A stretch of DNA of 64,000 nt. Source: an uncultured Alphaproteobacteria bacterium. Its GTDB lineage: Bacteria > Pseudomonadota > Alphaproteobacteria > Rs-D84. The translations under genes were made by a program, and so were the position numbers. This document shows, piece after piece, positions 15,208 to 39,923 of the stretch (positions are counted from its first letter, which is position 1; each line of letters opens with the position of its first letter). The stretch is taken from the NCBI GenBank assembly GCA_947175875.1, contig CAMWON010000002.1, forward strand, positions 80,357 to 144,356, written 5' to 3'. Below the pieces are notes generated by a model. That model did not search any database, was not told where the DNA came from, and saw only the letters and a program-made list of their open reading frames with translations.

Positions 15208-15240
15208 ACATACCGGTGTTTGCCGGTATTTTTATGCTTT
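15208..15240 (+). terminator. Rho-independent terminator after Cys-rich paralog 1
   Basis: Hairpin ataccgg-tgtttg-ccggtat followed by ttttatgctttttt. Confidence 0.55.
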
Positions 15241-15291
15241 TTTATCGATTCGAATTATGGTATAATTTGTACCAAAAGGAGAACTTTTATT

Positions 15292-16539: not shown

Positions 16540-16612
16540 TCAATATGGCGCGCACCCCGGAATTTTCTTCCGGGGTGCCTTTGCATAGAAAGAATTCAAG
16601 GAGAGATGCAAA

Positions 16613-17326
16613 ATGTTGTTTAAAAAGATTATGGCGGTGGTTTGTGCGGCGATGCTGGTCGTGCCGGCGGCGCGTGCGGCGGATTATGACACGTCCGACC
16701 CGTTGTACATGAACGGCAGAAGTGAAATTCTGTCAACGTCAAACATTGCATATTACGACAGTGTTCTGCGCATTGGCCAGGCGCTGTCCTATGGTTTTAC
16801 AGAGCGCTTTAACGCCGGCATCAGTTTGCATTACCAGAATGATTTTGACGGTGACGAGGACGGTTTCTCCAGCTTTGACTTAGGCGGAAAATATCGTCTG
16901 ATGACCGCGGCTGACAATAATGCCAATATCATATCGGACGTGCTGTTCGGGTTTAAGTTCGGCGGCTCGTCCCATGTGCGCACGCCGTGGTTTGCGGATT
17001 CGACGTATTATGCGGGACTGCGCTTTGGACGCGAGTATGCGACAATGACGCTGGCCGGGACGGTAAAGTCCAGCTGGATTTTCGACGACGACCGCGGAAT
17101 GTCGTACATAGACTTTATCCCGGAGGTATATTTTCGTCTGCGCGGCGCATGGCGGCTGGGGCTTGGGGCGGATATTCGCAAATCCACCAATACGGATTTC
17201 GACCAGGAATGGCTGAATGCAAAGCTGGTGCGGCAGTACGGACGCACGCAATATATCGGTCATATTGATTACGAGTTTGAGGATAGTGAAGTGCAGGTGG
17301 GGGCAAAGCTGAACATATTGTTTTAA
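16613..17326 (+). CDS. Outer-membrane beta-barrel protein (unknown family)
   Basis: RBS caaggagag; signal peptide MLFKKIMAVVCAAMLVVPAARA; beta-strand periodicity; C-terminal ...GAKLNILF. Confidence 0.55.
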   Translation: MLFKKIMAVVCAAMLVVPAARAADYDTSDPLYMNGRSEILSTSNIAYYDSVLRIGQALSYGFTERFNAGISLHYQNDFDGDEDGFSSFDLGGKYRLMTAADNNANIISDVLFGFKFGGSSHVRTPWFADSTYYAGLRFGREYATMTLAGTVKSSWIFDDDRGMSYIDFIPEVYFRLRGAWRLGLGADIRKSTNTDFDQEWLNAKLVRQYGRTQYIGHIDYEFEDSEVQVGAKLNILF

Positions 17327-17372
17327 TCTTGCGTGGTGCGCCGTATTTTAATCTTTTTTGGCGCGCCCGCTT

Positions 17373-17381
17373 GTGGTATAA
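17373..17381 (+). promoter_or_regulatory. Extended -10 promoter element TGGTATAAT; leaderless or very short-leader transcript for the large Cys-rich protein
   Basis: tggtataat ends 14 nt before the ATG at 17395, and no RBS is visible. The same TGGTATAAT element precedes the OMP at 15292 and the Ros/MucR gene (about 33589). Confidence 0.4.
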
Positions 17382-17394
17382 TCAATATATAATA

Positions 17395-19719
17395 ATGAAG
17401 AAAATCGTTACGTGGATTTTTGCTTTTGCTTTTACGGCGCCGGCCGCCATGGCCGATACGCCCGTTATTTCACGTGCCATTCCGTCATCGGCTGCATCCG
17501 TTGATAACAGTGCGACGCGCGATAATTCAACCGTGTCGTCCGCGCGTACGACCGTGCGTCGCGATACGGCTCAAAAATCAAGCGCCGGCACAACAGCCGC
17601 GTCATCCGAGAAAGGGGCGACGGCCGTCCGCGCAACTCGCACCACGGACACGGCCACGCGCGCCGTGACACCGTCGCGCGGTGCGGCGGCGCGCATCGCC
17701 GCGGGCGACACGGCGACATCGGCACGTGACAATTTGAATGCTGCGGTGAACACGGTCGGGCGCAATGCGCGCGTGACGGCGGCATCCGTCAACAGCGACC
17801 CGGCGGTGCGCCGTGCGGGGGTGACGCTGCGACCCAGCACGGCCGAGGTTGGGGGCCGCGCAAAAATCGCCGGGACAAATATTCAGACAGGCTCTAACAT
17901 CGGGGAATCTGTGCGCGCGCTGCAATCACGTGCGGCGTCGTCCACAACAACCACGACCCAGAGAGAGACAATAGCTGAGGCCAAAGAACGCCTGGAGCAG
18001 ACGGCCGATTTGAACAAATCATGCCAGGAGCAGTACAACGACTGTATGGACCAGTTCTGTGCGGTTATCGATTCCAATCAGAAACGTTGCAGCTGCAGTG
18101 CAAACTTATCCAGATACACCAAGGTTGAGACGGCGGTCAAAGACGCCAATACCCAGCTGAACGAGGTGGCGCAGCGTATCCGATATGTCGGATTGTCGGC
18201 GGACGAGATTCGGGCAATTATGTCCGCGACCGAGGCGGAAGAGGCCCTGTCCGGTGCACGCGACACGACCGAGACGCGCAACATGCTGGCCGATATAGAA
18301 GATTTGATAAAGAATCCGTCGTCGTCGACGTCGGTGGCCGGCAACGACAGTTTTTCGACGCTGGATTTGAATCTTGATTTTTCCGACACGTCCAATTTAT
18401 TTAGTCTGGACTTCTTAAACAACAATTCCAGCAGCATGTCAAACCTGCGCGGGACGGATTTGTATAACGCGGCGAAAAAGCGCTGCAATTCCATACTTAG
18501 CCAGTGTAAAGACGCCGGTGCCACGCAACAGCAGCTGACGGCGAATTACGATTTGGCGATTGACAAGGACTGTATCGCGTACGAGCAGGGGTTAACAAAA
18601 ATGAACGAGACTTTGGTCTCGAACGTGCGCAGTGCGAATCTGATGCTGCAAAAGGCGCGTCTGGCCGTGCTGCAGAATAAAAACCAGTATGATGCAAAGG
18701 GGTGCATTTCGGCACTGGACACATGCATGACGGATGAAATGGTTTGCGGTGAAAATTATGAAAAATGTCTGGACCCGACCAAAAGATACATCGATGAAAA
18801 CGGCAAGGTTGTAATCGGCCAGGATATTACGTTTATCCGCGACTTTATGAAGTCATATGACAATTCTGCAATAAATACTGAATTTTTGAGAAATGCGGCG
18901 GCGTCTAGCAAGGTGGTCGGCATCGAGGCATGCAAGAAGAATATAAGCGGAGAGTCAGGTGAGAACAGTGCGGCCAACGGCGACGGGTGGTGCGCGGTTA
19001 AATATCTGCTGCAAAAGATTGGAACCGGCGTCCGCTCGACAGAGGGGTTGTGTCGGCCCGTTCTGGACAAGTGCCAGCGTTATACGTACGACAGCAACAA
19101 CAATTATCAGCCGTACAACGACATCGTCTTAAATTACATCCAGCGCGCGATGGTAAACATAAAGTCCGGCCAGGAAAAGACAATTGCGGATTATGCGTCG
19201 AACTGTATGGTTGATGTCGCGACATGCTATAACCAGCAGGTGAGCCAGGTGAATGCATGGACGTCGTCGGCCAGTGTCGGCAGCATTCGCAACGTTATGC
19301 GCGGTGCATGCCGGAACGTCGTGCTGACGTGCGGATATGCGATATTTGATGATTGCTCTACCGCATGTGAATATTTTCAGGACGAAAATCGTAAGAACCA
19401 GTGTTTGGCGAACTGTCCGAAAACATCAGGTGGCGAGGGTGATATTATAGATGCGGTTTCCGAAATGTTCTATAACAGCATGCTGTGTCCGGATAATTCG
19501 ACATACAATAAAACGTCTAAATCAGCAGCAACCGAAGATAACAAGAAACGATATGTCAATGATTTGTGCACATGCAATACGGGCTATGAACCGTGGAGCA
19601 GTCAGTGCGTTTTAATATGTCCCGATAACTCTGACCGTAATTCGTATGGTTCGTGTGTGTGCGATGAAGGCTATACCATGAAAAACGGTGTCTGCATACA
19701 AAATGCCAAAAGCGAATAG
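17395..19719 (+). CDS. Large secreted cysteine-rich protein (775 aa from the Met at 17395), unknown function
   Basis: Signal peptide MKKIVTWIFAFAFTAPAAMA. About 180 aa of Ala/Thr/Arg/Ser-rich low-complexity region, then a predicted helical segment, then over 40 Cys including the EGF-like C-terminus CTCNTGYEPWSSQCVLICPDNSDRNSYGSCVCDEGYTMKNGVCIQN. No recognisable enzymatic motif. Confidence 0.65.
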   Translation: MKKIVTWIFAFAFTAPAAMADTPVISRAIPSSAASVDNSATRDNSTVSSARTTVRRDTAQKSSAGTTAASSEKGATAVRATRTTDTATRAVTPSRGAAARIAAGDTATSARDNLNAAVNTVGRNARVTAASVNSDPAVRRAGVTLRPSTAEVGGRAKIAGTNIQTGSNIGESVRALQSRAASSTTTTTQRETIAEAKERLEQTADLNKSCQEQYNDCMDQFCAVIDSNQKRCSCSANLSRYTKVETAVKDANTQLNEVAQRIRYVGLSADEIRAIMSATEAEEALSGARDTTETRNMLADIEDLIKNPSSSTSVAGNDSFSTLDLNLDFSDTSNLFSLDFLNNNSSSMSNLRGTDLYNAAKKRCNSILSQCKDAGATQQQLTANYDLAIDKDCIAYEQGLTKMNETLVSNVRSANLMLQKARLAVLQNKNQYDAKGCISALDTCMTDEMVCGENYEKCLDPTKRYIDENGKVVIGQDITFIRDFMKSYDNSAINTEFLRNAAASSKVVGIEACKKNISGESGENSAANGDGWCAVKYLLQKIGTGVRSTEGLCRPVLDKCQRYTYDSNNNYQPYNDIVLNYIQRAMVNIKSGQEKTIADYASNCMVDVATCYNQQVSQVNAWTSSASVGSIRNVMRGACRNVVLTCGYAIFDDCSTACEYFQDENRKNQCLANCPKTSGGEGDIIDAVSEMFYNSMLCPDNSTYNKTSKSAATEDNKKRYVNDLCTCNTGYEPWSSQCVLICPDNSDRNSYGSCVCDEGYTMKNGVCIQNAKSE

Positions 19720-20490: not shown

Positions 20491-22560
20491 ATGCTAGAAA
20501 ATCTTAACGAGGCCCAGCGCGCCGCGGTGGAAACGACCGAAGGGCCGCTGTTGGTGCTGTCGGGGGCGGGAACGGGCAAGACGCGCGTGCTGACGACGCG
20601 CATCGCGCATATTTTGCAAAGCCGCCTGGCCATGCCGTGGCAGGTGCTGGCCCTGACGTTTACGAACAAGGCTGCGAACGAGATGAAGGCGCGCATCGCC
20701 GCGTTTGCCGCGGACGGTGCGTTTGATGCGCGCGATTTGTGGTGCGGAACGTTTCATTCTGTGGCGCTGCGGATTCTGCGCGCGAATGCGGACGCGGCGG
20801 GCCTGCGCCGTGATTTTATCGTATATGGCGACGACGACCAAAAGGCCGTGATAAAAAATATTTTAGCCGCCCTGGGAATGTCAACCAAGACCCCGGCCGA
20901 TTATGTGGAGCAGTTTTCGTCGGTCAAGGACAGGGGGCTGCGCGCGCTGGAATATTCCGACAAGGTGTATGCGGCGTATAACGCGGAACTGGCGCGGTTG
21001 AACGCGGTGGACTTTGGCGACATAATATTAAAAGTGTTGCAGTTGTTTGATACGCACCCCGAAATCCTCTTGCGGTATCAGAACCAATTCAAATACATCT
21101 TGGTGGACGAGTTTCAGGATACCAACCACGCCCAGATGGAATTTCTGGAAATGCTGACCCGCGGGGCGGAGCGGCCGAACATATGTTGCGTCGGCGATGA
21201 CGACCAGTCCATATATTCATGGCGCGGGGCGGAAATAAAGCACATTTTAAATTTCGACAAAACGTTTGACGCCGCGCGCGTAATCCGGTTGGAGATAAAT
21301 TATCGCAGCACGCCGAATATTTTGGGCGCGGCAAATTCGCTGATACGCCATAACCGCGGAAGACTTGGCAAGGATTTGCGCAGTGCGGATGAAAATACCG
21401 TCGGCGAGCCGGTGTATGTCTTAACCGTCCCCAGCGACTGGGACGAGGCGCGTGTCGTCGCCGACGCTGTCCTGCGCGATGCGGCGGATTTCGGCAAGTT
21501 TGCGGTTTTGATTCGTGCGGGCTCGCTGTCGCGTTTGTTCGAGGAAGAGTTTGCGCGCCGCGGCATTCCGTATCGTTTGATTGGCGCGACCAAGTTTTAC
21601 GACCGTGCGGAAATCAGGGACGCGATTGCGTACATACGCTTGATGGCGTATCCGTTTGACGATATTTCATTTTTGCGCGTAATCGGTCGTCCGCGCCGCG
21701 GTTTTGGCGCGGCGGCGATTGAAAAACTGCGCGGGGCCGGGCCGGATTTGATGTCGGGGCTGATGAATGCGAAACTGTCGGCAAAGCAGAGGGCGGCCGC
21801 CGATGAATTTTTGTCCGCGTTTGATTTCGACTGGTCCGCGATGGCGCCGATGGACGCGGCCAAGACACTTTTGGAGCGCGCGGGCTATTTCAAAATGTGG
21901 CGCGAATCCAAAGACGCCGATGCGTCGGACCGTCTTGCAAATTTGCAGGAATTGATAACCAACGTTATTTCCAAATACGACACAATCGCCGAATTTTTAG
22001 AGCAGGCCGCCCTGATGATGACGGACGACGATGCGGACGCGGCGGATGCCGGTGGCGCGGTATCCATAATGACGATACACGCGGCCAAGGGGTTGGAATT
22101 TGACACCGTGTTTTTGCCGGCCTGGGAGGAGGGGATTTTTCCCAACGAAAAGACCGTGGACGAGGGGGCGCTGGAGGAAGAGCGCAGACTGGCCTATGTG
22201 GCGATAACGCGTGCGCGCGTGCGTGCGGTTATCTTGAACGCAATGTCGCGTCGGTTGTTTGGGGAGCAAAAGTATAATTCGCCCAGTCGCTTTATCACAG
22301 AGATGGACGGCCGGTATCTGGATTTTCAGGGCGGCTCGCCCCGCGGTGCGTATGCGCCGCCGCGCGGTATTGCGACATCTTATACACCGGCGCCGCGTGC
22401 GGCGCGCGCGACGCCGAAAAATTCCGTGGGACGATTGGTGTCGCATGCCGATATGGGGCGGGGCGTTGTTATCGAAGACGGTGGCGAGATATTGACCGTC
22501 GCGTTCAAAAGCCGCGGAATAAAAAAGGTCGCGCGCGGCTATCTGACATTTGAGTCTTAA
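20491..22560 (+). CDS. uvrD: UvrD/Rep-family ATP-dependent DNA helicase
   Basis: MLENLNEAQRAAV...GPLLVLSGAGTGKTRVLTTRIAHIL (Walker A/motif I); DEFQDTN (motif II); QNYRST-like NYRSTPNIL; VSIMTIHAAKGLEFDTVFL (motif V/VI). The 20320 ORF start would overlap the dnaQ start, so the ATG at 20491 is preferred. A tattataat -10 lies in the divergent promoter region. Confidence 0.8.
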   Translation: MLENLNEAQRAAVETTEGPLLVLSGAGTGKTRVLTTRIAHILQSRLAMPWQVLALTFTNKAANEMKARIAAFAADGAFDARDLWCGTFHSVALRILRANADAAGLRRDFIVYGDDDQKAVIKNILAALGMSTKTPADYVEQFSSVKDRGLRALEYSDKVYAAYNAELARLNAVDFGDIILKVLQLFDTHPEILLRYQNQFKYILVDEFQDTNHAQMEFLEMLTRGAERPNICCVGDDDQSIYSWRGAEIKHILNFDKTFDAARVIRLEINYRSTPNILGAANSLIRHNRGRLGKDLRSADENTVGEPVYVLTVPSDWDEARVVADAVLRDAADFGKFAVLIRAGSLSRLFEEEFARRGIPYRLIGATKFYDRAEIRDAIAYIRLMAYPFDDISFLRVIGRPRRGFGAAAIEKLRGAGPDLMSGLMNAKLSAKQRAAADEFLSAFDFDWSAMAPMDAAKTLLERAGYFKMWRESKDADASDRLANLQELITNVISKYDTIAEFLEQAALMMTDDDADAADAGGAVSIMTIHAAKGLEFDTVFLPAWEEGIFPNEKTVDEGALEEERRLAYVAITRARVRAVILNAMSRRLFGEQKYNSPSRFITEMDGRYLDFQGGSPRGAYAPPRGIATSYTPAPRAARATPKNSVGRLVSHADMGRGVVIEDGGEILTVAFKSRGIKKVARGYLTFES

Positions 22561-23873
22561 GACGATTTCTTGCTGTCTTTGTAAATTTTCCAATATTTTT
22601 TCGCCTGGGCCTGCATGTTCTTGGCCAGTTTCGTGACGTCTTTGCCGAACTGCTGGCCCAGCGAGTCGTCAACACTGCCGCCCAAGTCTTTTGCCAGCTG
22701 CAGCGCCTTGTCGGCCAGGTATGCGACCAGACATCCGATAATCAGCGTTATCATAAATCCATCGTTGTCGATTGACGGGACGCTGGACGCCAGGTTCGCG
22801 TCCACCACGCCGGACAGTATCGCCGCGCACACCGCGACAACAATCGACAGTGATACGAAATAAATTGCGGCGTTTATGAATCTGTTTATCTGCGTGGTCA
22901 AACTTTCCGTTTTGAACAACCCAAGGAATCCGTTGAATATTGTTCCGGCGATTCCCTTGTACGACGTCTTGCCGACTGTTTCCGCAATCGCCGTGAACGG
23001 CAGCATGAATATTGTCAAAAACAGGTCTGCAATCACGCCCAGCGCCATCAACGCAAACTTCCATATGTTTATCAAAAATATTACAATAAATACGGCGCCG
23101 ATTAGGAATGTGAACATGCTGTGTCCGATGCCGGCCAGCATCCATTTCCACCCGGCGGCGACGGCGGTGTAAAAGAATCCGGACAGTCGCGTCGGCACGC
23201 ACATTATGTCGGCGGCGGCCCGGGCGTCGATTATCGCGTCCGCGGCCATGTGCGTCGCGGCATAGTCACGTATGGCGCCGCATGTGTCGGGCAGTGATGC
23301 GCCGGCGGTTGTTGTCACCGCGTTCAAAATCAAATCCGACATATAGGTGCCCACGGTTATTATCGGGCCCGCGACCAGCATAAAAGTTTGGGCCGCACCG
23401 TATTGAATGACGAACACCCATATTGCGATTGTAAAGCCTTTCTTTACGATTCCCTCAATCGATTTTTTTACCTCCACGGCGCCGATAATCATCTGATACG
23501 CCTCGAACCCCATCCAGAACAGGAACGCAACCGCGATGAATATCGTTGCGAAACGCACCAACGAACTGTCCAGAATGCGCCCGATAAGCGTCATTGCGTT
23601 CATGAATGCAAGGCCGATTTTAGCCTCGACCGGGACATAGTCCGCAACCAGCTGATTTTGAAATTCGGATTGGAAAAAATTTATATCCTCGGCCAATTCG
23701 CCGGTAAAGGCCTCTTTGTTATGGTCGGTCGCCCACACGCCATAGTCGCCGATGTCGCCGGTTGCGCCCGGCACGTTGCCGGCCGCCATTGCGCCGGGCA
23801 TAAGCAGCAAGGCTCCGACGGCGCATATCATTATTTTTGAAAATATTTTTTTCAGCCTCGTCATGTATGTCAT
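22557..23873 (-). CDS. Polytopic inner-membrane protein, VirB6/TrbL-like paralog A (putative)
   Basis: Start taken at MTYMTRLKK, where ATGA overlaps the stop of paralog B. Signal/TM1, a soluble segment of about 70 aa, 6-7 further TM helices and a Lys-rich hydrophilic tail. Same architecture as the four upstream paralogs. Confidence 0.5.
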   Translation of the reverse strand: MTYMTRLKKIFSKIMICAVGALLLMPGAMAAGNVPGATGDIGDYGVWATDHNKEAFTGELAEDINFFQSEFQNQLVADYVPVEAKIGLAFMNAMTLIGRILDSSLVRFATIFIAVAFLFWMGFEAYQMIIGAVEVKKSIEGIVKKGFTIAIWVFVIQYGAAQTFMLVAGPIITVGTYMSDLILNAVTTTAGASLPDTCGAIRDYAATHMAADAIIDARAAADIMCVPTRLSGFFYTAVAAGWKWMLAGIGHSMFTFLIGAVFIVIFLINIWKFALMALGVIADLFLTIFMLPFTAIAETVGKTSYKGIAGTIFNGFLGLFKTESLTTQINRFINAAIYFVSLSIVVAVCAAILSGVVDANLASSVPSIDNDGFMITLIIGCLVAYLADKALQLAKDLGGSVDDSLGQQFGKDVTKLAKNMQAQAKKYWKIYKDSKKSS

Positions 23874-25309
23874 GCCTTTTTGCCAAACGCCTTGGACATG
23901 GCGCCGAATATCTGGGTCGGGGCAGACCATATCTTTTTGCCCAAATCCTTGGTCCATGCGCCAAAGTCAAACTGTTCCTTGCCCGGCGCGGACAGTATCT
24001 TGTCAACGCGCGGCGCCACGGCGTAATAGTACAGCAGGAACAGTCCAATCATTAACATCAGGAAATCCCATCCGTTTGACATAAAGTCGAATGCGCCGGG
24101 ATAGTGTCGCTCAACCTCTGCGCGGCGGGCGGTGAAACAGTTCTTGAACGCGTCCGCGTCCATTTCGCCGTCCGAGAGGGCGACGCGTTCGCAATCTGAG
24201 AACACGCGCATTACGGACAATGTTTGCGCGTCCGGATTTTCCGGTGCGACCCCCATCATCGGCGGCAGTATCGCGCTGTACCCGTCGGCGGGGCCGGGGA
24301 AGAATTCGTCGGCCGCGTACGAGACGGTCGCGTAAATGATAAGAATTTTTAATGTTATTGCGATAATTTGTATGGCGGTTTTAACCAGCATGTTTATCGC
24401 GTTGCCGGTTATGCCCCCGGCCAGCTTCCATGTTTTTTCAAATGCCGCCGCCGCCAGCAGGAACGGCAGGAATATTATTAAAAATACCAATTTGAATACA
24501 ACCGACAAAATCTGAAAGAACAGGTCGAACCCGATAATCAAAAACATTATCACCAGCGCCAGTCCCGCCAGCCATGTGAACAGGCCGCCGCCCATGCCCA
24601 GCCATGCGTAATTCATCAATGCAAATCCGCCCGCGGCGCCCGCCAGCATCACGCTGTTCAAATTTCCGATAACGCACATGAACGGCGCCATTACCGGGTT
24701 TAATATATCCGCCGAATCCGCCGCCGCGGTTTCCAGCGCGCGGCATTGCGAGCCCTGGGTTGTGCCGGTCGCCGCCATTGACAGTTCGGCGCCCACAAAC
24801 ATTACGGGCGTGATTGTTATGTTGGCGACTGTTTTTAACGCGGTTGTCCCGCCCATGCCCAGTGCGCCGATAAACACGCCGACGAACATTATGCGCGCGC
24901 CCTGGCGCCATACTTTGTCGAACCATGCCTGAAATTCTAGTTTCTTTTCAGACGTGTCCAAAGTGGACGTTTTCTGGGCGGCGGCATAGATATGCCGTAT
25001 CGCCTCTATAAACAGGAACAGCCCGAACCCCAGTGCCAGCAGTATCCACAGCGTTTCCACTATGGCGTTCCAGAACATTTCCGTTGCGCGGCTGATTACC
25101 GCAAACAGCTCCGTTATATACCCGCACATAAAGCAGCCCGATGCGCCGGCGATGTCGTCGGATGCACCGATTGCCGACATGAAATTATCCATGCTGGTGT
25201 ATGTTAAAGCCGCGCCGCCAATCGACGACGACAGGTACCAAATTCCGATACCCAGCGCAATGGCACCCATGATTAAGCGAATGGCAATCATTATTAATTT
25301 CGCCTTCAT
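23870..25309 (-). CDS. Polytopic inner-membrane protein, VirB6/TrbL-like paralog B (putative)
   Basis: 479 aa. The N-terminal CFMCGYITELFAVIS motif is shared with paralogs C and E (CWGCPVFDRLFQVIS, CWSCDMFGAVMATMS). Multiple TM helices and a Lys-rich tail. Start ATGA-overlaps the stop of paralog C. Confidence 0.5.
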   Translation of the reverse strand: MKAKLIMIAIRLIMGAIALGIGIWYLSSSIGGAALTYTSMDNFMSAIGASDDIAGASGCFMCGYITELFAVISRATEMFWNAIVETLWILLALGFGLFLFIEAIRHIYAAAQKTSTLDTSEKKLEFQAWFDKVWRQGARIMFVGVFIGALGMGGTTALKTVANITITPVMFVGAELSMAATGTTQGSQCRALETAAADSADILNPVMAPFMCVIGNLNSVMLAGAAGGFALMNYAWLGMGGGLFTWLAGLALVIMFLIIGFDLFFQILSVVFKLVFLIIFLPFLLAAAAFEKTWKLAGGITGNAINMLVKTAIQIIAITLKILIIYATVSYAADEFFPGPADGYSAILPPMMGVAPENPDAQTLSVMRVFSDCERVALSDGEMDADAFKNCFTARRAEVERHYPGAFDFMSNGWDFLMLMIGLFLLYYYAVAPRVDKILSAPGKEQFDFGAWTKDLGKKIWSAPTQIFGAMSKAFGKKA

Positions 25310-26505
25310 TTTCCACCCGCCTTGTCATCTTTTTTACCGCCGTTTATAATCGTCGCCCCGATTTTTTTCATGGTTTGGGCCGCCGCCGTGGTCAGTTTCA
25401 TCGCGTCGTCGGCCAGCTGTTCGCCCAGTTTGTTATCCGCCGATACGTTGAACGCGCCAAGCACCATGTTCGTGACCTGGGGAATCTGGGAATAGATATA
25501 ATTTAGTACATATACCAGCACAATCGCACTGCCCAGGGTTATCTGTGCCAGATTGTCCTGGTCAAGGTCGGCTTCAAACACGCTGCCGTTTGTAATCAGC
25601 GCCATCAAATCCGCCGTGGATGCACCGGGTGCGGAAAAGAATTTTGCGATTATCACCATTATCACCGTATATGTCAGTACCGCCGCCGCCAGACCAATTA
25701 TGGCGTTTATGACTTTTTTGAACTGGTCCGTTCCGACATTTTTGCCCAGGTTTGCCATCCATTGCGGCGCGTCGGCCCCTTTGAACGAGACCAGTGTTAA
25801 CGACAACGGAAAGAAAAATGCAAAGAAAGTCATTGCGATAATCACGTCCGCAAAGTAAAAGCAGAACCGTACGAACAGCTTGAAAAATCCATAGAACAGG
25901 TACAGTCCCACAAAGAACATTATTATATGTTTTATCAATGCGCCGATGCCCAGTAATGCATCCCAAGAAAATGCGTTATTCATTACAACGATGCCCAGTT
26001 TCATATAGGCCTGGAACTGGGTTATCGTGGTTTTCATAATCAGAATTATCGTATCGCGCAGGGCGGGGCGATAGAATCCGTCGTCGGACATCTGCATCGG
26101 CTGATAGGTCACTTTTTCATTAATCGTTTCCGTGTCCATGCGCAGCATGCTTTGCGTGTATATGGCCGTTATCTGGGCGACGGGCTCGAACGTTATCGTT
26201 GTTACAAAACGCGGCAGCCACACGCCCAGCGACAAAAACGCAAACGCCACCAAAGAGTTTATGAATACCGGCCGTATGGATTTTGCATAGAACGGGTCGC
26301 CGTCCGCACCGCCCTTGATGTTTTTCCAGACCGCGGACACCACAAAAAATGCGAACAGTACGCAGAACAGTATCATGCAGAACACGACGAACTTGTCATA
26401 TACCGCGGCGGCGGCCATTGATATCACCTGAAACAGACGGTCAAACACCGGGCAGCCCCAACACTGCACCGCGCCGTCTATGATAGGGTTCATTAGCTCG
26501 TTCAT
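25306..26505 (-). CDS. Polytopic inner-membrane protein, VirB6/TrbL-like paralog C (putative)
   Basis: Start at MNELMNPIIDGAVQCWGC, where ATGA overlaps the stop of paralog D. N-terminal amphipathic segment then a TM bundle, as in VirB6 (F..F..L...I then TM1). Gly/Lys-rich C-tail. Confidence 0.5.
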   Translation of the reverse strand: MNELMNPIIDGAVQCWGCPVFDRLFQVISMAAAAVYDKFVVFCMILFCVLFAFFVVSAVWKNIKGGADGDPFYAKSIRPVFINSLVAFAFLSLGVWLPRFVTTITFEPVAQITAIYTQSMLRMDTETINEKVTYQPMQMSDDGFYRPALRDTIILIMKTTITQFQAYMKLGIVVMNNAFSWDALLGIGALIKHIIMFFVGLYLFYGFFKLFVRFCFYFADVIIAMTFFAFFFPLSLTLVSFKGADAPQWMANLGKNVGTDQFKKVINAIIGLAAAVLTYTVIMVIIAKFFSAPGASTADLMALITNGSVFEADLDQDNLAQITLGSAIVLVYVLNYIYSQIPQVTNMVLGAFNVSADNKLGEQLADDAMKLTTAAAQTMKKIGATIINGGKKDDKAGGK

Positions 26506-27794
26506 TTCTTTTTCTTTATCCAGCCTGCGGCCCGACCGATTGACTTGCCCCAGTTTTTGGCGCCGCTCCATGTCTTTTTCGCGTCGCCTGTCACCTGGGT
26601 GTAGAGCTTGTCGCTGGCCGGGGAATACATTTTTAAGCGCTCGCGCGTTAGGTCAAATATGCGCAGCATTAAATAAAACGTCATTATCGCGGACAGCCAC
26701 AGTATCGAATGCTCGCCAAATCCCATGGCGTGGTTTGCCACCTGGGGGACGTTGGATGCGGCACTGCCGCCGGCGGCGACAACGAACACGGAACTGTTCC
26801 AGTTGAACAGGGCGCGCACAATCGCGACGTTTATCGTTAAAATAAACGCGCATGCAATCATTGTTATCACCAGGGACTGCAGCGCCTTGGTAATTCCGGA
26901 AAATGCCGGCCATATGTCGAACCATTTGTCCGGGTTCTTGGGCTTTACGACCCATGTCAAGACCTGGAACGGGTACAGAATCAGCGCCATTCCAAATTCA
27001 AATATCGCCTGAATAATCAGCAGCGCCATAAACAGATTACACCCGACAAACGCCGTCACAATCAATATGCCCGAGACCAGATTCATAAAGTCTTCGCCGC
27101 CGTGCGGTATTAGTGTTATCAGTCCGCGCAGCCCCCGGTGTATAAAATCAAATCCGCGCTTTATCATCTGGTTGTTCGTGTGGCTGATGTCGGCGATTGG
27201 CTGGGTTAAAAATTCACAGCTGCGCTCCGATATCCATTCCTTTTCCAGAATGTCCGGCGGGCATTCGACCGGCGCGGCGGCCGATGCCGCGATGCCGCCC
27301 GTGTTTATTCCGTCGGTGATTGCGCGCGTATAGATTGCACCGAATTCCAGAAACGGATTGACCAGCCATTCCGTCACATATACCGGTTTTATCTGCAATA
27401 AAACCACCGCCGCGATTATTGCGCGCAGGCCGGGCTTTAACATGTTCTGGGCGATGGTCATGCTGTCCGCCTTGCCGGATGCCATTTCGCCGCCGCCGGA
27501 AAATCCAAAGAACGCGACCCATTTTGCGGGGAAATACATTTTCACCAGATACAGGCCCATCGATATCCCCAGAAAGCCCCATATTAAAATGTATATGATG
27601 CCGTCGCCGTTTCCGACAAAGAATTCATATCCGCCCGTTGCGACCGCCATGAACGCGTCCAGCACCATCGGCACGAACGGCGCCAAATTAAAGCTGTCGA
27701 CGATGCCCCAGTCGGCATGCGCCGCGCACGGCGCCATAAGTGCGGCAAAAAACAGCGCGGCCGACAAAATTTTTTTTATTCTGGTCATATACAT
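26502..27794 (-). CDS. Polytopic inner-membrane protein, VirB6/TrbL-like paralog D (putative)
   Basis: 430 aa; signal peptide MYMTRIKKILSAALFFAALMAPCAAHA; periplasmic segment, TM bundle and KKKK tail. First gene of the four-gene minus-strand run. Confidence 0.5.
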   Translation of the reverse strand: MYMTRIKKILSAALFFAALMAPCAAHADWGIVDSFNLAPFVPMVLDAFMAVATGGYEFFVGNGDGIIYILIWGFLGISMGLYLVKMYFPAKWVAFFGFSGGGEMASGKADSMTIAQNMLKPGLRAIIAAVVLLQIKPVYVTEWLVNPFLEFGAIYTRAITDGINTGGIAASAAAPVECPPDILEKEWISERSCEFLTQPIADISHTNNQMIKRGFDFIHRGLRGLITLIPHGGEDFMNLVSGILIVTAFVGCNLFMALLIIQAIFEFGMALILYPFQVLTWVVKPKNPDKWFDIWPAFSGITKALQSLVITMIACAFILTINVAIVRALFNWNSSVFVVAAGGSAASNVPQVANHAMGFGEHSILWLSAIMTFYLMLRIFDLTRERLKMYSPASDKLYTQVTGDAKKTWSGAKNWGKSIGRAAGWIKKKK

Positions 27795-27817
27795 ATATAT
27801 TTATTGTTTTCAATTAT

Positions 27818-27841
27818 ATCACATTTGAGGGAAAATGTGAT
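27818..27841. promoter_or_regulatory. Perfect palindrome ATCACATTT-n6-AAATGTGAT in the 60-bp divergent intergenic region between paralogs D and E; candidate operator
   Basis: 9-bp arms with a 6-bp spacer, centred in an AT-rich divergent promoter region (27795-27854). Confidence 0.45.
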
Positions 27842-27854
27842 ATACTTAAAAGCG

Positions 27855-29150
27855 ATGGGGCGCCTAAAAAAATTTTGGATAGTGTTTTTGTCGTTTCTGC
27901 CGCTGTCGGCGGGGGCGGTGGCGCCGTTTGTCGTGGGCGGCATCGCCGGGGCGGTCGGAATTGCGGGCTTTTCAATATTTAGAAGTACGTCGCCCGTCAA
28001 CATGGCGGACGCGCTGTCGTTTTTTTCCAGCTGCTGGTCGTGCGACATGTTCGGCGCCGTTATGGCGACAATGTCGAATTTATTGCCAAAGGCGTACGAT
28101 GCGATTGCGGGCGTCGTGATACCGTTTGCGGCGGCGCTGTCGGCGATATGGTTCGCGTGGAAGATTTTTTCAGGATTTTTAAACGCCAAGATTGACGACC
28201 CGTGGTCCGTCACCGGTGCGTTCGGAACGCATCTGATAAAGCTGGCGGCGGTATGTGCATTGCTGATGGCGCCACTGCCGCGGCTGATAAGCGATATTGT
28301 TATTCAGCCGATATTTACTGTCGGCCTGTCGGTAAATCATATCGCGGCCGACATGGCGGGCGAGGGGAGGTTCAACGAATGCGTCGTCGCAACCGCACTG
28401 GCCGATCCGGTTGTGGTGGATGCGAACGCGGCGGCGGCGGGCGCGTTTTCGCCGTATCTGCGCCACAACCTGGCGTGCGAGGTTGGAAATGTACACCAGA
28501 TGACGGGCCTGGGCATGACGGTTGGATGGACCATGATGAACATGGCGTTTAATTCCAAGTACATGCACAAGATTATGTGGGGCGTGCCGATTTTCCCAAA
28601 TGTCCCGATTTTCTTTTGCGGTCTAATGATAATAGTGCTGTTCTTTTTCGCATTGCTGCCGATACCGATATATTTTCTGGAGATATTTATCACACTGGCG
28701 ATGGATTTGATAATGCTGCCGCTGATGCTGCTGGGGTGGCTGTTCAAGGGGTGGGCCATATTCCCCCAGGGCGGCCGCACGATTAAACAGATGATAGACG
28801 ACGTGATAAAGGGCACGGTCGGCATCGCGATGACGGGCGTGTTTTTGACGTTCTCGATAATGTTTTTGAACGCGGTGTTCGGAAACTGGGGCGGGGCGAC
28901 GCGGTTGGCGGTGGCGCTGGAGAAAAACGATTCGATGTTACTGATGGACGGCCTGTTGATGCGCAACGACAGTATTGTCACAATTATCCTTATGGGGATT
29001 TTCATTGCGATGTTCATGAACATGATTCCCGCGCTGGTCAAGACTTTGTTTAGCATATCGATATCCGACAAGTATTATGAAACAACGAAAAAGAACATAA
29101 ACATAGTATGGGGAAACATGAAAAAATGGTACGCCGCGTTAAAAAAATAA
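27855..29150 (+). CDS. Polytopic inner-membrane protein, VirB6/TrbL-like paralog E (putative), divergent from A-D
   Basis: 431 aa from MGRLKKFWIVFLSFLPLSAGAVA (signal). CWSC motif, then Trp-rich periplasmic loop, 6+ TM helices and a Lys-rich C-terminus. Confidence 0.5.
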   Translation: MGRLKKFWIVFLSFLPLSAGAVAPFVVGGIAGAVGIAGFSIFRSTSPVNMADALSFFSSCWSCDMFGAVMATMSNLLPKAYDAIAGVVIPFAAALSAIWFAWKIFSGFLNAKIDDPWSVTGAFGTHLIKLAAVCALLMAPLPRLISDIVIQPIFTVGLSVNHIAADMAGEGRFNECVVATALADPVVVDANAAAAGAFSPYLRHNLACEVGNVHQMTGLGMTVGWTMMNMAFNSKYMHKIMWGVPIFPNVPIFFCGLMIIVLFFFALLPIPIYFLEIFITLAMDLIMLPLMLLGWLFKGWAIFPQGGRTIKQMIDDVIKGTVGIAMTGVFLTFSIMFLNAVFGNWGGATRLAVALEKNDSMLLMDGLLMRNDSIVTIILMGIFIAMFMNMIPALVKTLFSISISDKYYETTKKNINIVWGNMKKWYAALKK

Positions 29151-29218
29151 AAAATCAAGTGCTTTATTTAACGTGGGGGCCTTTTTTGCATCTTCCGAAT
29201 CTGATATAATTCATAGCA

Positions 29219-29728
29219 ATGAAGAAGTTTCCGATTCTTTACTGGCCCCGCGGTACCAAGAACGATAACGAGTATCGTCTGGCGCGCAAGGTGATAAGCA
29301 ACGCGACCGGCGTCATGCCGACACTGGCGGGTGGTGAAATGGATTTGGCGTCCATATTTGCCGAAAACCCGGAGGCGAGTGTCTATTACCCCGTTTTCTG
29401 TGAAAGCACGGGCTGGTGGGGCGAACTGCTGGGGGGGACGGCCGTTGTCACGGACAAGGTTATTATTTCCCCGGAATGCCAGTTGATGGTAATTGAATCC
29501 GCGCACCACAGCCGTGCGCGCGGCACGACCCAGCTGCTGGCGGCGGAAATATATCCGGCCAGCGGCTTTTTCAAGAAGATGAATTCGGGGATTGCGACGG
29601 TTTCCGACATGCTGGCGACCGATACGGGTACGATACTGGCACTGTTTTCGGGCAAAAGCCCCGCGCCGTTTATAAATATTTTGGAATCAACCGGTAATTC
29701 ATATCTGGGCTGTATCGGGCGGTACTAA
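29219..29728 (+). CDS. Hypothetical protein (169 aa), no recognisable motif
   Basis: ORF with its own -10-like gatataatt upstream and a compact codon-usage-consistent frame. No signal peptide or TM. Confidence 0.45.
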   Translation: MKKFPILYWPRGTKNDNEYRLARKVISNATGVMPTLAGGEMDLASIFAENPEASVYYPVFCESTGWWGELLGGTAVVTDKVIISPECQLMVIESAHHSRARGTTQLLAAEIYPASGFFKKMNSGIATVSDMLATDTGTILALFSGKSPAPFINILESTGNSYLGCIGRY

Positions 29729-33564: not shown

Positions 33565-33634
33565 TTTATTTAAACTTTACTTTCGTTTTATGGTATAATG
33601 AATTTATTAAATAAACAAGGGATTATATAAAATT

Positions 33635-33994
33635 ATGAGTGACGGAAAGCATTCTGATATCGCGACGGCAATTCTGGCGGCGGCGATAATCGGCGCGCGG
33701 CCCGATACGGACGCGGATGCCGCCGTTCGCATCGCGCGCACTGCATTGACGGGCGGGGCGCAGTGCGTGGGGGCGGACAAAATTGCGGCATCTGTCCGCG
33801 GGGACAAGATTCAGTGTCTGGAGGACGGAACGTGGCACACAATGCTGCGCCGGTATATCGCGCGCAAATACAACATGACCCCGGCGCAGTATCGCGCGAA
33901 ATGGGGCCTGCCGGATGATTATCCGTTTGTGGCGCCGGATTATGCCGCGCGCCGTTCCGACATTGCAAAGAATTCCGGTTTGGGCCGAAAATAA
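33635..33994 (+). CDS. Ros/MucR-family transcriptional regulator (variant zinc-finger region)
   Basis: IQCLEDGTWHTMLRRYIARKYNMTPAQYRAKWGLPDDYPFVAPDYAARRSDIAKNSGLGRK matches the Ros/MucR C-terminal consensus (CLECG..FK.LKRHL...H.LTPEEYREKWGLP.DYPMVAP.Y...RS.LAK..GLG). The second zinc-ligand Cys is Asp here. tatggtataat -10 upstream. Confidence 0.75.
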   Translation: MSDGKHSDIATAILAAAIIGARPDTDADAAVRIARTALTGGAQCVGADKIAASVRGDKIQCLEDGTWHTMLRRYIARKYNMTPAQYRAKWGLPDDYPFVAPDYAARRSDIAKNSGLGRK

Positions 33995-34006: not shown

Positions 34007-35890
34007 ATGGCTGAAAAATTTAGAAAGATTGTGAACGCGCCGCACAAGGCATTCGGACGCGCGCGCAAAAATATCGCAAAGATGACGCCGACAACTAAAA
34101 AGGGCAAGGCGGTGCGCGCCGCCGGCGTGGCGATGACGGGGATGTTTCAATTTCTGCTGTGGGCGCTGAAATACGCGGCGCTGGACAATCATGCGACGCG
34201 CGCGATGGAACGGGGCTTTGGAAACATGACCGTCGGCAAAAATAAGGACGGAAAAGATAAAAAGCTGTCCGCGTTTGCGAAAAAGTATCCGAATCTGTCG
34301 TCGCATATGCTGTATTACATGATGCTGGGGGCGGCGGCAATCGCCACGCCGCATGCGTATGACGCGTTGACCAACGAGGGGGAGGAAAACGACAAAATCG
34401 AAAGCATGGCGGAAATTCCGTTCGGCCAGCCGGGGACATACGGCGCATATCTGGACCGCATGCGTTCGATAACGCCGCTGTTGATTGCGGACCTGATTGC
34501 AAAAGAGGGCGTTCATATGGACGACCAGGGACGCCATACGCCGTACAAGGATTCCAACGGAATACCGACAATCGGATTCGGCTCTACCGTTCTAAAGGAC
34601 GGCAGCAAGGTCACAATGAAAACACCGCCCATTTCAACCGAGGAGGCGTACGAGCTGGCGCGGTGGCATCTGGAGCAGGGCGAGACTTATTTCGTTATGT
34701 ACTGTTATGACGTGGCGATGGAAAATGTGAACATCAACACCACCAACGAGGCGTTCGGAATGGCCTCTATCGTTTATAATGCGTACTCAAAGTTAATTGA
34801 AAATCCAAAGGACACGTCGCATCAAAAGCGCTTTGAAAAATTGCGCGAAATATATGACCAGTACGGCCTGGCGACGCCCGATTCGTTGATTGTTGATGCT
34901 TTCGCGCAGTATCCGGTAAAGGACATGCGCAGCTTTGGCGAAAAGTGGCTGGGCGGGGCGCCCGTGCAGACAACGGCGAACATGCTGGGGAACTTTCTGG
35001 CGGACGGACGCGGAATGTACTGGCGCCGCTGGCTGGAGGCGGGAATGCTGACCGGCGATATCACGCCAGAGATGATGCTGGATTGTCCGGCAAACGGAAT
35101 GTACGAATTTTTTAAGGTCATGAAAGAAAAGAAAAGCGCGTTCTTTATCGGCGACGGCGAAAACCGCCGCGTCAACAAGGAGACGTATGCAAGGTTTAAA
35201 GAATGGCTGGCCAACCCTGTGAACGAACGCGGCGAGCGCTTGGGCGAAAAGAATTTCCCGCGTGTTCGTAATCTGCTGCCGGCCGATGTGCGCGTCATGT
35301 GTGAAAGCGGGCACTGTAAATTGGGCGACGTTGAATTTATCGCCCAGTTCACCGCCACCCCCGCCCAGCAGGAGGCCGAGACCGCATCATATGTAATCGG
35401 ATATGACGAACAGTATCGCCAGGCGGTCGGCGCATTCCGCGCGGGCGATTATGACGGCGCACTGGCCCAGTATCTGAAAATGGCGGAGGAATATCCGAAC
35501 AACGCCTTGATTCACAACGACCTGGCGGCGACGTACAACCAGCTGGGGCGCTATGACGATGCGATTAAACATGCGCGCATCATCATAAACGAAATCGGCG
35601 ACAAGAGCCAGTACGGTGCCGCCCAGTACAACGCCGGATTCGCGTACGAACAAAAGGGCGATTTGCAAAAGGCGCTGGCGAATTATAAACTGGCGCTGGC
35701 CAACGGGAACAGACGCGTGCAAAAAGACATAACGCGCGTGTCACAGCAATTGAAGTCACAGCAGAAGGGGCGCGGTAAAAAATCGGCCAAGACCGCATAT
35801 GAGCGTGGTGCGAAAAAGCTTGGAAACAATGCACATAGCGCGGATTTTGATATGTTAAGTGCGACGCATGGCGGCCACGGTATGGCGTAG
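34007..35890 (+). CDS. Membrane-anchored T4-type lysozyme (GH24-like) domain protein with C-terminal TPR repeats
   Basis: One N-terminal TM (AVRAAGVAMTGMFQFLLWAL). KEGVHMDDQGRHTPYKDSNGIPTIGFGST matches the T4 lysozyme catalytic block E11-G...Y18-K-D20....T26-I-G-x-G. C-terminal TPR-like repeats (YPNNALIHNDLAATYNQLGRYDDAIKHARI; YNAGFAYEQKGDLQKALANYKLAL). Confidence 0.6.
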   Translation: MAEKFRKIVNAPHKAFGRARKNIAKMTPTTKKGKAVRAAGVAMTGMFQFLLWALKYAALDNHATRAMERGFGNMTVGKNKDGKDKKLSAFAKKYPNLSSHMLYYMMLGAAAIATPHAYDALTNEGEENDKIESMAEIPFGQPGTYGAYLDRMRSITPLLIADLIAKEGVHMDDQGRHTPYKDSNGIPTIGFGSTVLKDGSKVTMKTPPISTEEAYELARWHLEQGETYFVMYCYDVAMENVNINTTNEAFGMASIVYNAYSKLIENPKDTSHQKRFEKLREIYDQYGLATPDSLIVDAFAQYPVKDMRSFGEKWLGGAPVQTTANMLGNFLADGRGMYWRRWLEAGMLTGDITPEMMLDCPANGMYEFFKVMKEKKSAFFIGDGENRRVNKETYARFKEWLANPVNERGERLGEKNFPRVRNLLPADVRVMCESGHCKLGDVEFIAQFTATPAQQEAETASYVIGYDEQYRQAVGAFRAGDYDGALAQYLKMAEEYPNNALIHNDLAATYNQLGRYDDAIKHARIIINEIGDKSQYGAAQYNAGFAYEQKGDLQKALANYKLALANGNRRVQKDITRVSQQLKSQQKGRGKKSAKTAYERGAKKLGNNAHSADFDMLSATHGGHGMA

Positions 35891-35909
35891 CGGCGGGGGA
35901 TATGCAGAA

Positions 35910-37853
35910 ATGAAAGTGTATGTAAATTACGACGATGCGCGCTGGAGAAAATATAAAATAGATTTCCGGCACATTGCCGCCGCCGCGGGGCCGCGCCGCC
36001 CGGGGGCGGAGGTGTCGATAACATTGGTCGATGACGCGACGATACATCGGCTGAACAAAGAATACCGCGACATGGACAAGCCGACGAACGTTTTGTCGTT
36101 TGAACTGGGCGACGAGATGTTGTTGGGGGATATTTACATATCGCTGGACACGGTTGCGCGCGAGGCGGCGGCGGCCGGCATATCGGTTGCCGAACACACC
36201 GCGCATATGGTTGTGCACGGGATGCTGCACCTGCAGGGGTACGACCATATCCGTGATGACCAGGCCGCGGTCATGGAATCGTGCGAGGTGGAGATTCTTA
36301 AAAAATTGGGAATAAAAAATCCGTATGCGGACGAGGCGCCGTCGCGCGCGCGCGGCATGCGCGGATGGGTGCGCGCGCTGTGCCTGGCGCTGGCCGGGGC
36401 GGCGGCGTCATTCGGTTTTGCGCCGTTTCATCTGTGGCCGGTGACAATGCTGGCGATTGGGGCGGCATACTGGATTTTGACGTCCGCACCGCGCGCGGGC
36501 GTTGCACGGACGTTTCTGCGCGCCGCGCCGTTCGGTGCGGCATACGGCGTCGCCATGTTTTGGTGGGCGCTTAGCTCCATATACGTTGTGCCCGAACTGG
36601 CGCGTCAGTTTGCAATTTGGACCGTGCCGGGATTGCTGGGGCTGGGGCTGGCCGGTGCGCTGGTGTTTTCGATTCCGTTTGTCGCGGCGACGCGCGCGCG
36701 CGGCGCATCGCGCATATTTGTGTTTGCAGGCGTATGGACGGCGGTGCTGTGGGCGCGTGAATGGATGTTTACCGGATTTCCGTGGAATCCGATTGCGAAC
36801 ATCATGTTGCCCGTGTCGGTAATCGCAAATTCAATGGCGTTGTTCGGGGCGCTGGGGTTGACGTTTGTTCTTGTCGGAATCATTGCGGGCGCGGTTGAAA
36901 TTATGCGTGATAAAAAATGCGCTATGTGCTGGATTTCGTGGCTTGCGTTCATTTTGATGTTGTGCGGTGGCACTATGTACGGACGGCGTAATATTTATAA
37001 GTCGGATGCTATGCCGGATGCGCCAGGGCCACTGGTCCGCGTGGTGCAGCCGGCGACGTCCCAGGACCAAAAAATGTCTTATTCGCGCGCCGACGCCGTT
37101 GCGCGTGCAGAGCGTAATGTGCGAAATCTGTTGGCGCTGGGGGCGGGGGGCGACGGTGCGCGGCCGGATTTGATTGTTTATCCGGAAACGACGTATCCGT
37201 TTGTCATAACCGACGACGACATGCCTTTTTCAAAGATTTTGGATACAAACGTTATTTTGGGCGCGACGTCGTATCGTGACGGGCGGCTGTACAATTCCAT
37301 GATTGTGGCGGACAGGGCGGGGCGCGTCGTGCATGCATATGACAAGGCGCATCTGGTGCCGTTCGGCGAATACGGTCCGCTTGGGATAATGCCGTCGCCG
37401 GCCAATCTGGCCAGCGGCACGGGGCGGGTCGCGCTGGATATCGACGCGGGTGACGGACGCTTTGTTTTTGCGCCGGCGATATGTTATGAAATTATTTTCT
37501 CCGATTCGCTTATCCCGGCCGGCGTCACGCCGAACGCGATAATAAACATTACCAATGACACATGGTTTGGGCGCACGCCCGGCACGTACCAGCATCTGGA
37601 CATGGTGCGCCGATATGCAATCGAGTCCGGCGTGCCGGTTATCCGTGCGAATTATTCCGGAATCAGCGCGTTTGTGGCGCCAGACGGCCGTGTGACGTCA
37701 ATGCTGCCCGTGGGGCAGACGGGCGTTTTGGACGGACGCGTGAACGGGGCGCACATGACGGCGTATCGCGCACTTGGGCGCGACGCATGGATTTTGATAA
37801 TTTTGATTGTGGCGTCCGTCGGCGCGGCGGCGGGCGCGCGGCGTCGCGATTAA
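35910..37853 (+). CDS. Single in-frame ORF fusing a YbeY endoribonuclease domain with an apolipoprotein N-acyltransferase (Lnt) domain
   Basis: N-terminal MKVYVNYDD...HGMLHLQGYDH (YbeY H3xH5xH metal site). From about 36355, MRGWVRALCLALAGAAASFGFAPF... carries Lnt TM helices and the CN-hydrolase domain (E...K...C triad region ICYEIIF). No stop codon separates the two. The upstream extension to 35859 overlaps the preceding gene, so the ATG at 35910 is preferred. Confidence 0.6.
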   Translation: MKVYVNYDDARWRKYKIDFRHIAAAAGPRRPGAEVSITLVDDATIHRLNKEYRDMDKPTNVLSFELGDEMLLGDIYISLDTVAREAAAAGISVAEHTAHMVVHGMLHLQGYDHIRDDQAAVMESCEVEILKKLGIKNPYADEAPSRARGMRGWVRALCLALAGAAASFGFAPFHLWPVTMLAIGAAYWILTSAPRAGVARTFLRAAPFGAAYGVAMFWWALSSIYVVPELARQFAIWTVPGLLGLGLAGALVFSIPFVAATRARGASRIFVFAGVWTAVLWAREWMFTGFPWNPIANIMLPVSVIANSMALFGALGLTFVLVGIIAGAVEIMRDKKCAMCWISWLAFILMLCGGTMYGRRNIYKSDAMPDAPGPLVRVVQPATSQDQKMSYSRADAVARAERNVRNLLALGAGGDGARPDLIVYPETTYPFVITDDDMPFSKILDTNVILGATSYRDGRLYNSMIVADRAGRVVHAYDKAHLVPFGEYGPLGIMPSPANLASGTGRVALDIDAGDGRFVFAPAICYEIIFSDSLIPAGVTPNAIINITNDTWFGRTPGTYQHLDMVRRYAIESGVPVIRANYSGISAFVAPDGRVTSMLPVGQTGVLDGRVNGAHMTAYRALGRDAWILIILIVASVGAAAGARRRD

Positions 37854-39014: not shown

Positions 39015-39913
39015 TATGTTTTATCCATATAGTTTATGACGGTGTCGATATATTCCGAATACGCGTCAAAGTTTTCCCGGCCGTCCGCATCTTCGGGCGG
39101 GGTGTTTTTATGTGCCGCCATGTATTCGGCCAGTGCGTCTGTATCCGGGAATGTTAAAATATTGTTGTCGGATACCGCGCCGGCGGGTGCGATTATAAAT
39201 CCATAAATGTTTATCTGTATGTCGTCAAGGGTGTCGGAAAACACGGTGCCCAATCGTTCCATTGCCGCGGCCAAGGGTGCCTGGTCGATGCCGACGCCGC
39301 CCATCCACAGTGTTTCGGATGTGCCGATGGCAAATACCGCCGGCTTAAAGTTTCCGATTTGCGGACTGCGCTTTACGCTGTATCCGGCGCGGTCAAAGAT
39401 ATCGCGCAGGTCGTCAAAATTTAGCGTGTTTGCCGCGGGGCCGTGCGGCGGCGCCGGTGTCACGGTCGGTGTGGTGGTGGTTGCCGGTTGGAGCGATTGT
39501 GCCGCGGGCGGCGTGATGCGGGGCGGGCGCCGCATTTGTGACGCGGCCGGGCGCGGTGCGGCCGGTGCAATCGGTGTGTCCGCGGCGGGGGTCGGTTCGG
39601 GGGTGACGGTCGGCGTTGTCACGGCGGCGGTCTTGTTCCGGGCGCGCCCGATGCCGATGCGCCGGCGTAAAATTCCCTTTGGACGGATAAGTATGTAAAG
39701 AACGGCAATGGTAATTACGATTGCGCTGGTCAGCGATATATAGAATGCCGGGCGAATTGGTGTCTGGGATGCTTGCAGATATGCCAGATACTGCCAATGC
39801 TGGGCCGAGAAGATATTAAAACCAAACACGGTGCCCAGCCAGAAACTGGTCCCCAGAGTCGCCGCCAGCAGCCAAAGCAGGCAGATTAAAATACGTTCTA
39901 TTTTTTTGTTCAT
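39014..39913 (-). CDS. Membrane protein (2 N-terminal TM helices, Pro/Thr-rich linker, C-terminal globular domain), unknown function
   Basis: MNKKIERILICLLWLLAATLGTSFWLGTVF... then ~90 aa of TPTVTPEPTPAAD-type linker, then a conserved-looking 130-aa C-terminal domain. First gene of a four-gene minus-strand operon. Confidence 0.5.
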   Translation of the reverse strand: MNKKIERILICLLWLLAATLGTSFWLGTVFGFNIFSAQHWQYLAYLQASQTPIRPAFYISLTSAIVITIAVLYILIRPKGILRRRIGIGRARNKTAAVTTPTVTPEPTPAADTPIAPAAPRPAASQMRRPPRITPPAAQSLQPATTTTPTVTPAPPHGPAANTLNFDDLRDIFDRAGYSVKRSPQIGNFKPAVFAIGTSETLWMGGVGIDQAPLAAAMERLGTVFSDTLDDIQINIYGFIIAPAGAVSDNNILTFPDTDALAEYMAAHKNTPPEDADGRENFDAYSEYIDTVINYMDKT

Positions 39914-39923
39914 TTGTCTTTGA

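Follow-up and report, generated by a model that had tools for sequence, protein, structure and literature searches.

The palindrome between the divergently transcribed genes D and E is most probably a pair of back-to-back sigma-70-type extended -10 promoters, predicted from the sequence, one for each of the diverging genes, rather than a separate operator. As judged from its preservation across genomes, the palindrome is under selection, and it is a genuine, conserved cis-regulatory element. The patterns of conservation described below appear neither to require nor to support an operator bound by a dimeric regulator. The D-E palindrome is ordinary in kind, and it comes from an uncharacterised lineage. 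Throughout the text, the window refers to the whole 64,000-nucleotide stretch of DNA that was analysed.

The palindrome and its genomic setting

The initial annotation described a perfect 9-6-9 palindrome, ATCACATTT-GAGGGA-AAATGTGAT, placed between the divergent paralogs D and E in a 60-bp AT-rich gap. This palindrome is real and is located at 27818-27841, and the gap that contains it (27795-27854) has a G+C content of 23%; the G+C fraction of the window is 0.48-0.62 per 1 kb, with a mean of ~0.54. Its extent had been understated, as the perfect arms are 12 rather than 9 nt long, giving a 12-6-12 palindrome of the form TATATCACATTT-GAGGGA-AAATGTGATATA at 27815-27844. When imperfect pairing is allowed, the arms extend to 24 nt (27803-27826 and 27833-27856) with 83% complementarity, and this is the longest inverted repeat of the window. 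The genes and the parts of the palindrome are as follows.

22557-23957, minus strand: paralog A, in the same orientation as D
23870-25309, minus strand: paralog B, in the same orientation as D
25306-26571, minus strand: paralog C, in the same orientation as D
26502-27794, minus strand: gene D, a membrane-protein paralog of 430 aa, with its ATG at 27794 and an alternative start at 27788
27815-27826: left arm of the palindrome, TATATCACATTT, with a single C/T position and otherwise invariant in the pattern-selected Enterousia-type orthologous sites
27827-27832: spacer, GAGGGA, of which bases 1-5 differ between species and base 6 is A throughout the close clade
27833-27844: right arm of the palindrome, AAATGTGATATA
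27855-29150, plus strand: gene E, a membrane-protein paralog of 431 aa, with its ATG 8 nt past the -10 hexamer

A palindrome of this kind is unlikely to have arisen by chance, because a perfect arm of at least 12 nt appeared in only 7 of 20,000 dinucleotide shuffles of the D-E gap, and because the 9-6-9 pattern, allowing up to 3 mismatches, was expected 0.06 times in the window and was observed once. The palindrome is single-copy within the window, even at 3 mismatches.

On the minus strand, D, C, B, and A are co-oriented and overlap or abut one another, and they therefore presumably form one transcription unit, an operon that would be driven by the minus-strand promoter. The order of genes around D and E is conserved across orthologous loci. 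No Shine-Dalgarno sequence is found before the ATG of gene E.

Two predicted promoters within the palindrome

A consensus promoter scan of 27500-28100 returned exactly two sites, both of them inside the palindrome and one on each strand. At both sites a TG lies one base ahead of the -10 hexamer. These two predicted promoters are listed here together with a neighbouring promoter that served for comparison.

27823 to 27813, minus strand: predicted extended -10 promoter for D, TGTGATATAAT, which matches TRTGnTATAAT at 11 of 11 positions
27836-27846, plus strand: predicted extended -10 promoter for E, TGTGATATACT, near-consensus to TRTGnTATAAT
29200-29210, plus strand: comparison promoter, TCTGATATAAT, with the ATG of the next gene at 29219, 9 nt past the -10 hexamer

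The -10 hexamers read TATAAT on the minus strand (27818 to 27813) and TATACT on the plus strand (27841-27846), so that both strands carry a hexamer near TATAAT with A2 and T6 in place. The TG upstream of the hexamer is preceded by T-R on both strands, giving TGTGa, with R being G or A in orthologs. Each site lies upstream of a gene and is directed towards it, and the same motif is reused at other genes.

Under this arrangement gene E would be transcribed from the right arm plus two bases, and gene D from the left arm plus two bases, probably along with the three co-oriented paralogs behind it. Placing two copies of the same 11-nt motif so that they face outwards is by itself enough to make 9 of the 12 palindromic positions complementary, and the remaining palindromic AAA/TTT lies in the A/T-rich spacer. 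Transcription is predicted to start near 27806 on the minus strand and at 27853-27855 on the plus strand, that is, ~47 bp apart. The gene E mRNA would then be leaderless or carry a leader of 1-2 nt, and a leaderless transcript is probable because the ATG lies 6-10 nt past the -10 hexamer in most orthologs and is not preceded by a Shine-Dalgarno sequence. The same 6-10-nt distance fits a promoter at this exact place. For gene D, a short leader of ~12 nt that also lacks a Shine-Dalgarno sequence is predicted.

The motif itself is not peculiar to the D-E gap. Perfect TGnTATAAT (TGNTATAAT) occurs 7 times in the window, compared with 1.41 expected, and all seven sites are intergenic and aimed at a gene start 9-36 nt away; TRTG is present at six of them. 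The longer TRTGNTATAAT, with at most one mismatch, occurs 15 times in the window compared with 5.3 expected. Because all seven perfect sites are intergenic and gene-directed, TRTGnTATAAT looks like the general promoter motif of this genome. The -35 regions at the motif sites of the window are merely T-rich.

The D and E sites resemble extended -10 (TGn/TRTGn) sigma-70-type promoters in their TATAAT-like hexamer, in the TG one base upstream, and in the T-R two bases further. They also share with that class the want of a good -35, the gene-facing position, and the recurrence of the motif in the genome. The TRTGn motif is reportedly that of Voskuil and Chambliss in 2002, and the extended -10 is said to be the subject of Mitchell et al. 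in 2003. TRTGn was defined in Gram-positive bacteria, and unlike those reference promoters the D and E sites are predicted ones in an uncultured alphaproteobacterium.

The hexamers of the two promoters are 22 bp apart, and each -35 position falls on the TRTGn segment (ATCACA) of the partner. Two RNA polymerases could not bind together at this spacing, and we infer that the D and E arms would compete for polymerase. Warman, Grainger and coworkers have described bidirectional promoters in E. coli whose opposed -10 elements overlap or have bases in common, with divergent starts at distances of 18 bp (also 10 or 23 bp) (PMC12825309). Like these promoters, the D-E gap has pseudo-symmetrical DNA for divergent transcription at which binding of polymerase in one direction should preclude binding in the other. 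It differs from them in that its hexamers are 22 bp apart and its predicted starts ~47 bp apart, and in that each extended -10 overlaps the -35 position of the partner, whereas in the E. coli class it is the -10 of the partner that is overlapped.

It is rather unlikely, though conceivable, that selection has shaped the strictly spaced, symmetric pair as a device: each extended -10 would occupy the -35 position of its partner, and each binding of polymerase would commit to one direction. If so, the device would set the ratio in which the D-C-B-A and E arms are expressed, or would make them fire in mutually exclusive bursts, and control could be added by a further factor that recognises the invariant inner TTT-N5-AAAA. 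We also considered whether ATCACA is a true -35 element. It matches at only 4 of 6 positions and is missing the TTG, and other promoters of the window have T-rich -35 regions; its assignment as a -35 element is speculative.

Conservation in Candidatus Enterousia and the alternative readings

Enterousia has been assigned to the reduced-genome order Rs-D84 (PMC12306168). The E homologs are encoded in metagenome-assembled genomes of ~0.9 Mb obtained from gut and rumen. In more than 40 species of Candidatus Enterousia (order Rs-D84), the palindrome is kept at the D-E gap. Across seven loci with 68-94% identity in E, the block TTCAATTATATCA(C/T)ATTT-N5-A-AAATGTGATATA(C/G)TT is invariant; the five bases of the spacer and the D leader differ freely from locus to locus. 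One genome per species was scanned for exact matches to the pattern ATCAYATTT-N6-AAATRTGAT, and at least 119 loci were found. Every one of the Enterousia-type matches listed (more than 40 further sites) lies at the orthologous D-E gap, and the matches in other phyla are unrelated, representing chance or hairpins. The E-side hexamer of the pattern-selected Enterousia-type sites reads TATA[C/G/A]T, and A2 and T6 do not vary even though they fall outside the search pattern.

A second set of loci was found through protein E and carries no palindrome bias. It comprises 80 loci with 52-87% identity, which yield 73 unique upstream regions. The plus-strand motif is present in 70 of these regions and both motifs are present in 60, with the D-side motif conserved as ATTATAnCAYA in 60 of the 73. 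Variation on the E side is limited to R, n, and hexamer position 5. The spacing of the hexamers in orthologs is mostly 22 bp, with 26 bp in one clade and 21, 23, or 25 bp at a few loci. A perfect inverted repeat of at least 12 nt is found in only 15 of the 73 regions. Distant orthologs have unrelated, non-palindromic sequences in place of the inner 12 nt (tttataataatt, attcgataaaaa), and the long inverted repeats that do survive there are the promoter motif itself (AATTATATCACA-13-TGTGATATAATT and TAATTATAACATA-12-TATGTTATAATTA).

Covariation between the arms was followed in 47 sites, a set in which hexamer A2 and T6 are fixed by the selection regex. The R/Y pair of the arms is Watson-Crick in 21, C.A in 25, and T.G in 1, and the n pair is Watson-Crick in 27, T.G in 19, and otherwise in 1. 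Changes at the variable positions affect one arm alone; dyad symmetry is not being maintained, and no RNA stem either.

These data bear on the proposal of the initial annotation that the palindrome is an operator co-regulating both arms of the array. What stands of this proposal is a control region shared by D and E that is under selection in more than 40 species and unique in the window, but a dimeric trans-acting regulator is not called for. We consider it unlikely that the dyad is an operator at which a repressor or activator dimer would control both promoters together. A perfect dyad does overlap the two predicted -10 elements and has been kept in those more than 40 species, yet it decays in distant orthologs (15 of 73) while both promoter motifs persist (60 of 73), and the symmetry that a dimer would read is broken by C.A at one pair (25 of 47) and by T.G at another (19 of 47). 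The generic promoter motif accounts for the strongly conserved bases, the inner TTT/AAAA of the close clade aside; that segment is invariant in the clade beyond what the core promoter consensus explains, which would suit an operator. However, the neighbouring comparison promoter at 29200-29210 is non-palindromic and is as conserved as the palindrome in ~30 genomes, TG-adjacent spacer bases included, and the invariant inner TTT/AAAA is therefore not exceptional for the lineage. The strong preference for a 22-bp spacing is just as compatible with a bound protein, imperfect symmetry extends just downstream of both -10 elements (T-G/A-AAAA), and the sequence of a repressor site overlapping both -10 elements would resemble this one closely.

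An operator of this type would be expected to recur as a regulon or to lie near a cognate regulator gene, and a search for further copies had been suggested. No second site was found in the window at up to 3 mismatches, or in Enterousia-type genomes among the matches listed. The initial annotation would have given up the operator if the palindrome proved both unique and unconserved; it is unique in the window, but it is conserved in more than 40 species. The remark that no regulator gene is adjacent to the palindrome holds within ~5 kb, and the lack of an adjacent candidate also weighs against an operator. The window yielded a single DNA-binding regulator, Ros/MucR (33635-33994); GreA and DksA are also present there. 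To our knowledge, Ros/MucR does not recognise long perfect dyads.

Divergent promoters that share a palindromic operator include bioA/bioBFCD with bioO-BirA and tetA/tetR. Like these systems, the D-E gap is short, lies between divergent genes, and holds a dyad that overlaps both promoters. Unlike them, the D-E dyad comes without a cognate regulator, further sites, or kept symmetry, and it reduces to promoter motifs.

Among the matches listed, the sole double match came from bin BRZ_KL__bin36, in which contigs 17 and 16 (L027 and L088) both carry the D-E locus and are 83% identical over more than 5 kb. As this identity runs over their whole length, we take the bin to be a mixture of two related organisms and the double match not to be a second site. 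Four other loci (L036 46-69, L060 7948-7971, L104 6141-6164, and L124 5199-5222), two of them labelled Pelagibacteraceae, carry the same ATCACATTT-N6-AAATGTGAT palindrome with conserved flanks and represent an unrelated conserved hairpin or dyad of another lineage.

An origin of the symmetry in the history of the genes was also weighed. That the palindrome is nothing but a neutral relic of the inverted duplication behind D and E, with a symmetry that is historical and not functional, is very unlikely. D and E are divergent paralogs whose N-terminal coding DNA still shares TAAAAAAATTTTG, and imperfect symmetry reaches out to 24 nt per arm, but the two proteins are only ~20% identical and neutral DNA of such age would be randomised. 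Neutral sites are saturated here, as can be seen from the variable spacer and the D leader, and symmetry is therefore retained only where each promoter is selected. Inverted duplication may account for the origin of the symmetry, but not for its retention.

It is highly improbable that the palindrome functions as an RNA hairpin in a transcript, whether as a 5'-UTR structure, an attenuator, or a terminator. While the window sequence folds well on either strand, with -12 to -18 kcal/mol and a z of about -6, it is flanked by divergent genes and precedes both predicted transcription starts. Many orthologs have the C.A mismatch in the middle of the stem, and the fold of L088 reaches only -6.3 kcal/mol (z -2). 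Compensatory changes are absent, and no Rfam family was matched, the sole match being a spurious microRNA far under threshold.

The least probable of the readings is a core site for a tyrosine recombinase (dif-like or lox-like) or a CRP/FNR-type site. Core sites of the dif or lox kind have 11-13-bp arms around a 6-8-bp centre, which the 12-6-12 geometry fits, and the window encodes a XerC/D-like recombinase (2458-3321) and FtsK (12026-14284). The centre is variable, though, with 5 of the central 6 nt differing among species, and the palindrome does not resemble the proteobacterial dif consensus. The orientation of the flanking genes is constant among the loci examined. Nor is there a GC-skew switch; cumulative GC skew rises through the whole window, which places the terminus and its dif site outside it. 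As for CRP, the arms equal its consensus half-sites. These are arranged as TGTGA-N6-TCACA in a CRP site, but in the palindrome the half-sites are everted (TCACA-N12-TGTGA), and a CRP/FNR protein was not seen in the window.

Further candidates were set aside. The loop holds a Shine-Dalgarno-like GAGGGA and an ATG-TGA mini-ORF, but the sequence of this spacer differs between species (GGTGCA, GATGCA, and others) and is situated ahead of the predicted start. Neither a DnaA box nor a CtrA box was matched when the palindrome was compared by eye with the consensus sequences.

A promoter model for the lineage and further features of the window

The candidate "operator and regulon" can be removed from the list. 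In its place, the pair of predicted promoters at the D-E gap and the recurrence of their motif provide a usable promoter model for Candidatus Enterousia, an uncultured reduced-genome gut lineage of Rs-D84, consisting of TRTGnTATAAT, a weak T-rich -35, and frequent leaderless starts. Such a model can improve start-codon and operon calls in Enterousia genomes. We found no description of Enterousia promoters, and the word "promoter" is absent from PMC12306168. The fixed back-to-back geometry, conserved over much of the lineage, is also a natural case in which to study polymerase competition between divergent promoters.

Leaderless or very short leaders appear to be frequent in the window, with the end of the -10 hexamer 7-12 nt ahead of the ATG and no Shine-Dalgarno sequence. 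Sites of this kind are found at 12017-12037, 29200-29221, 39913-39933, 17372-17397, 46384-46409, and 60589-60612, and examples include ftsK (with a likely true start at 12035), the gene at 29219, and the minus-strand gene that ends at 39913. A different layout from that of the D-E gap is seen at 33565-33634, between a minus-strand MgsA/RarA-like gene and the plus-strand Ros/MucR gene. There, two -10-like elements face each other (33591-33599 on the plus strand and 33630-33622 on the minus strand), and overlapping transcripts are predicted. Directly after the stop of E, at 29148-29192, the sequence AAAAAATAAAAAATCAAGTGCTTTATTTAAC...CCCCCTTTTTTG is almost invariant in ~30 genomes and forms no convincing hairpin.

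The five paralogs of the array (22557-29150), in tandem and divergent arrangement, share 18-24% pairwise identity, D and E being ~20% identical. None belongs to a Pfam or NCBIfam family, and a sequence-profile search of the PDB gave no credible match. The AlphaFold model of E has low confidence (pLDDT 60), and its best PDB match is TrwI/VirB6 from the R388 type IV secretion stalk, a weak one (Foldseek E 0.04, TM 0.31/0.45). The paralog set is thus possibly VirB6-like, a likeness that is unproven and serves as a lead only. A set of five paralogs brings to mind the multiple VirB6 copies of Rickettsiales.

Elsewhere in the window, four consecutive plus-strand ORFs at 14409-19719 (264, 439, 237, and 796 aa) matched nothing in Pfam or NCBIfam, and two of them have perfect TGGTATAAT promoters upstream, at 15258 and 17374. 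Finally, a single ORF at 35859-37853 combines a YbeY endoribonuclease domain with apolipoprotein N-acyltransferase (Lnt) domains, representing a fused gene or, alternatively, an in-frame read-through of two genes.
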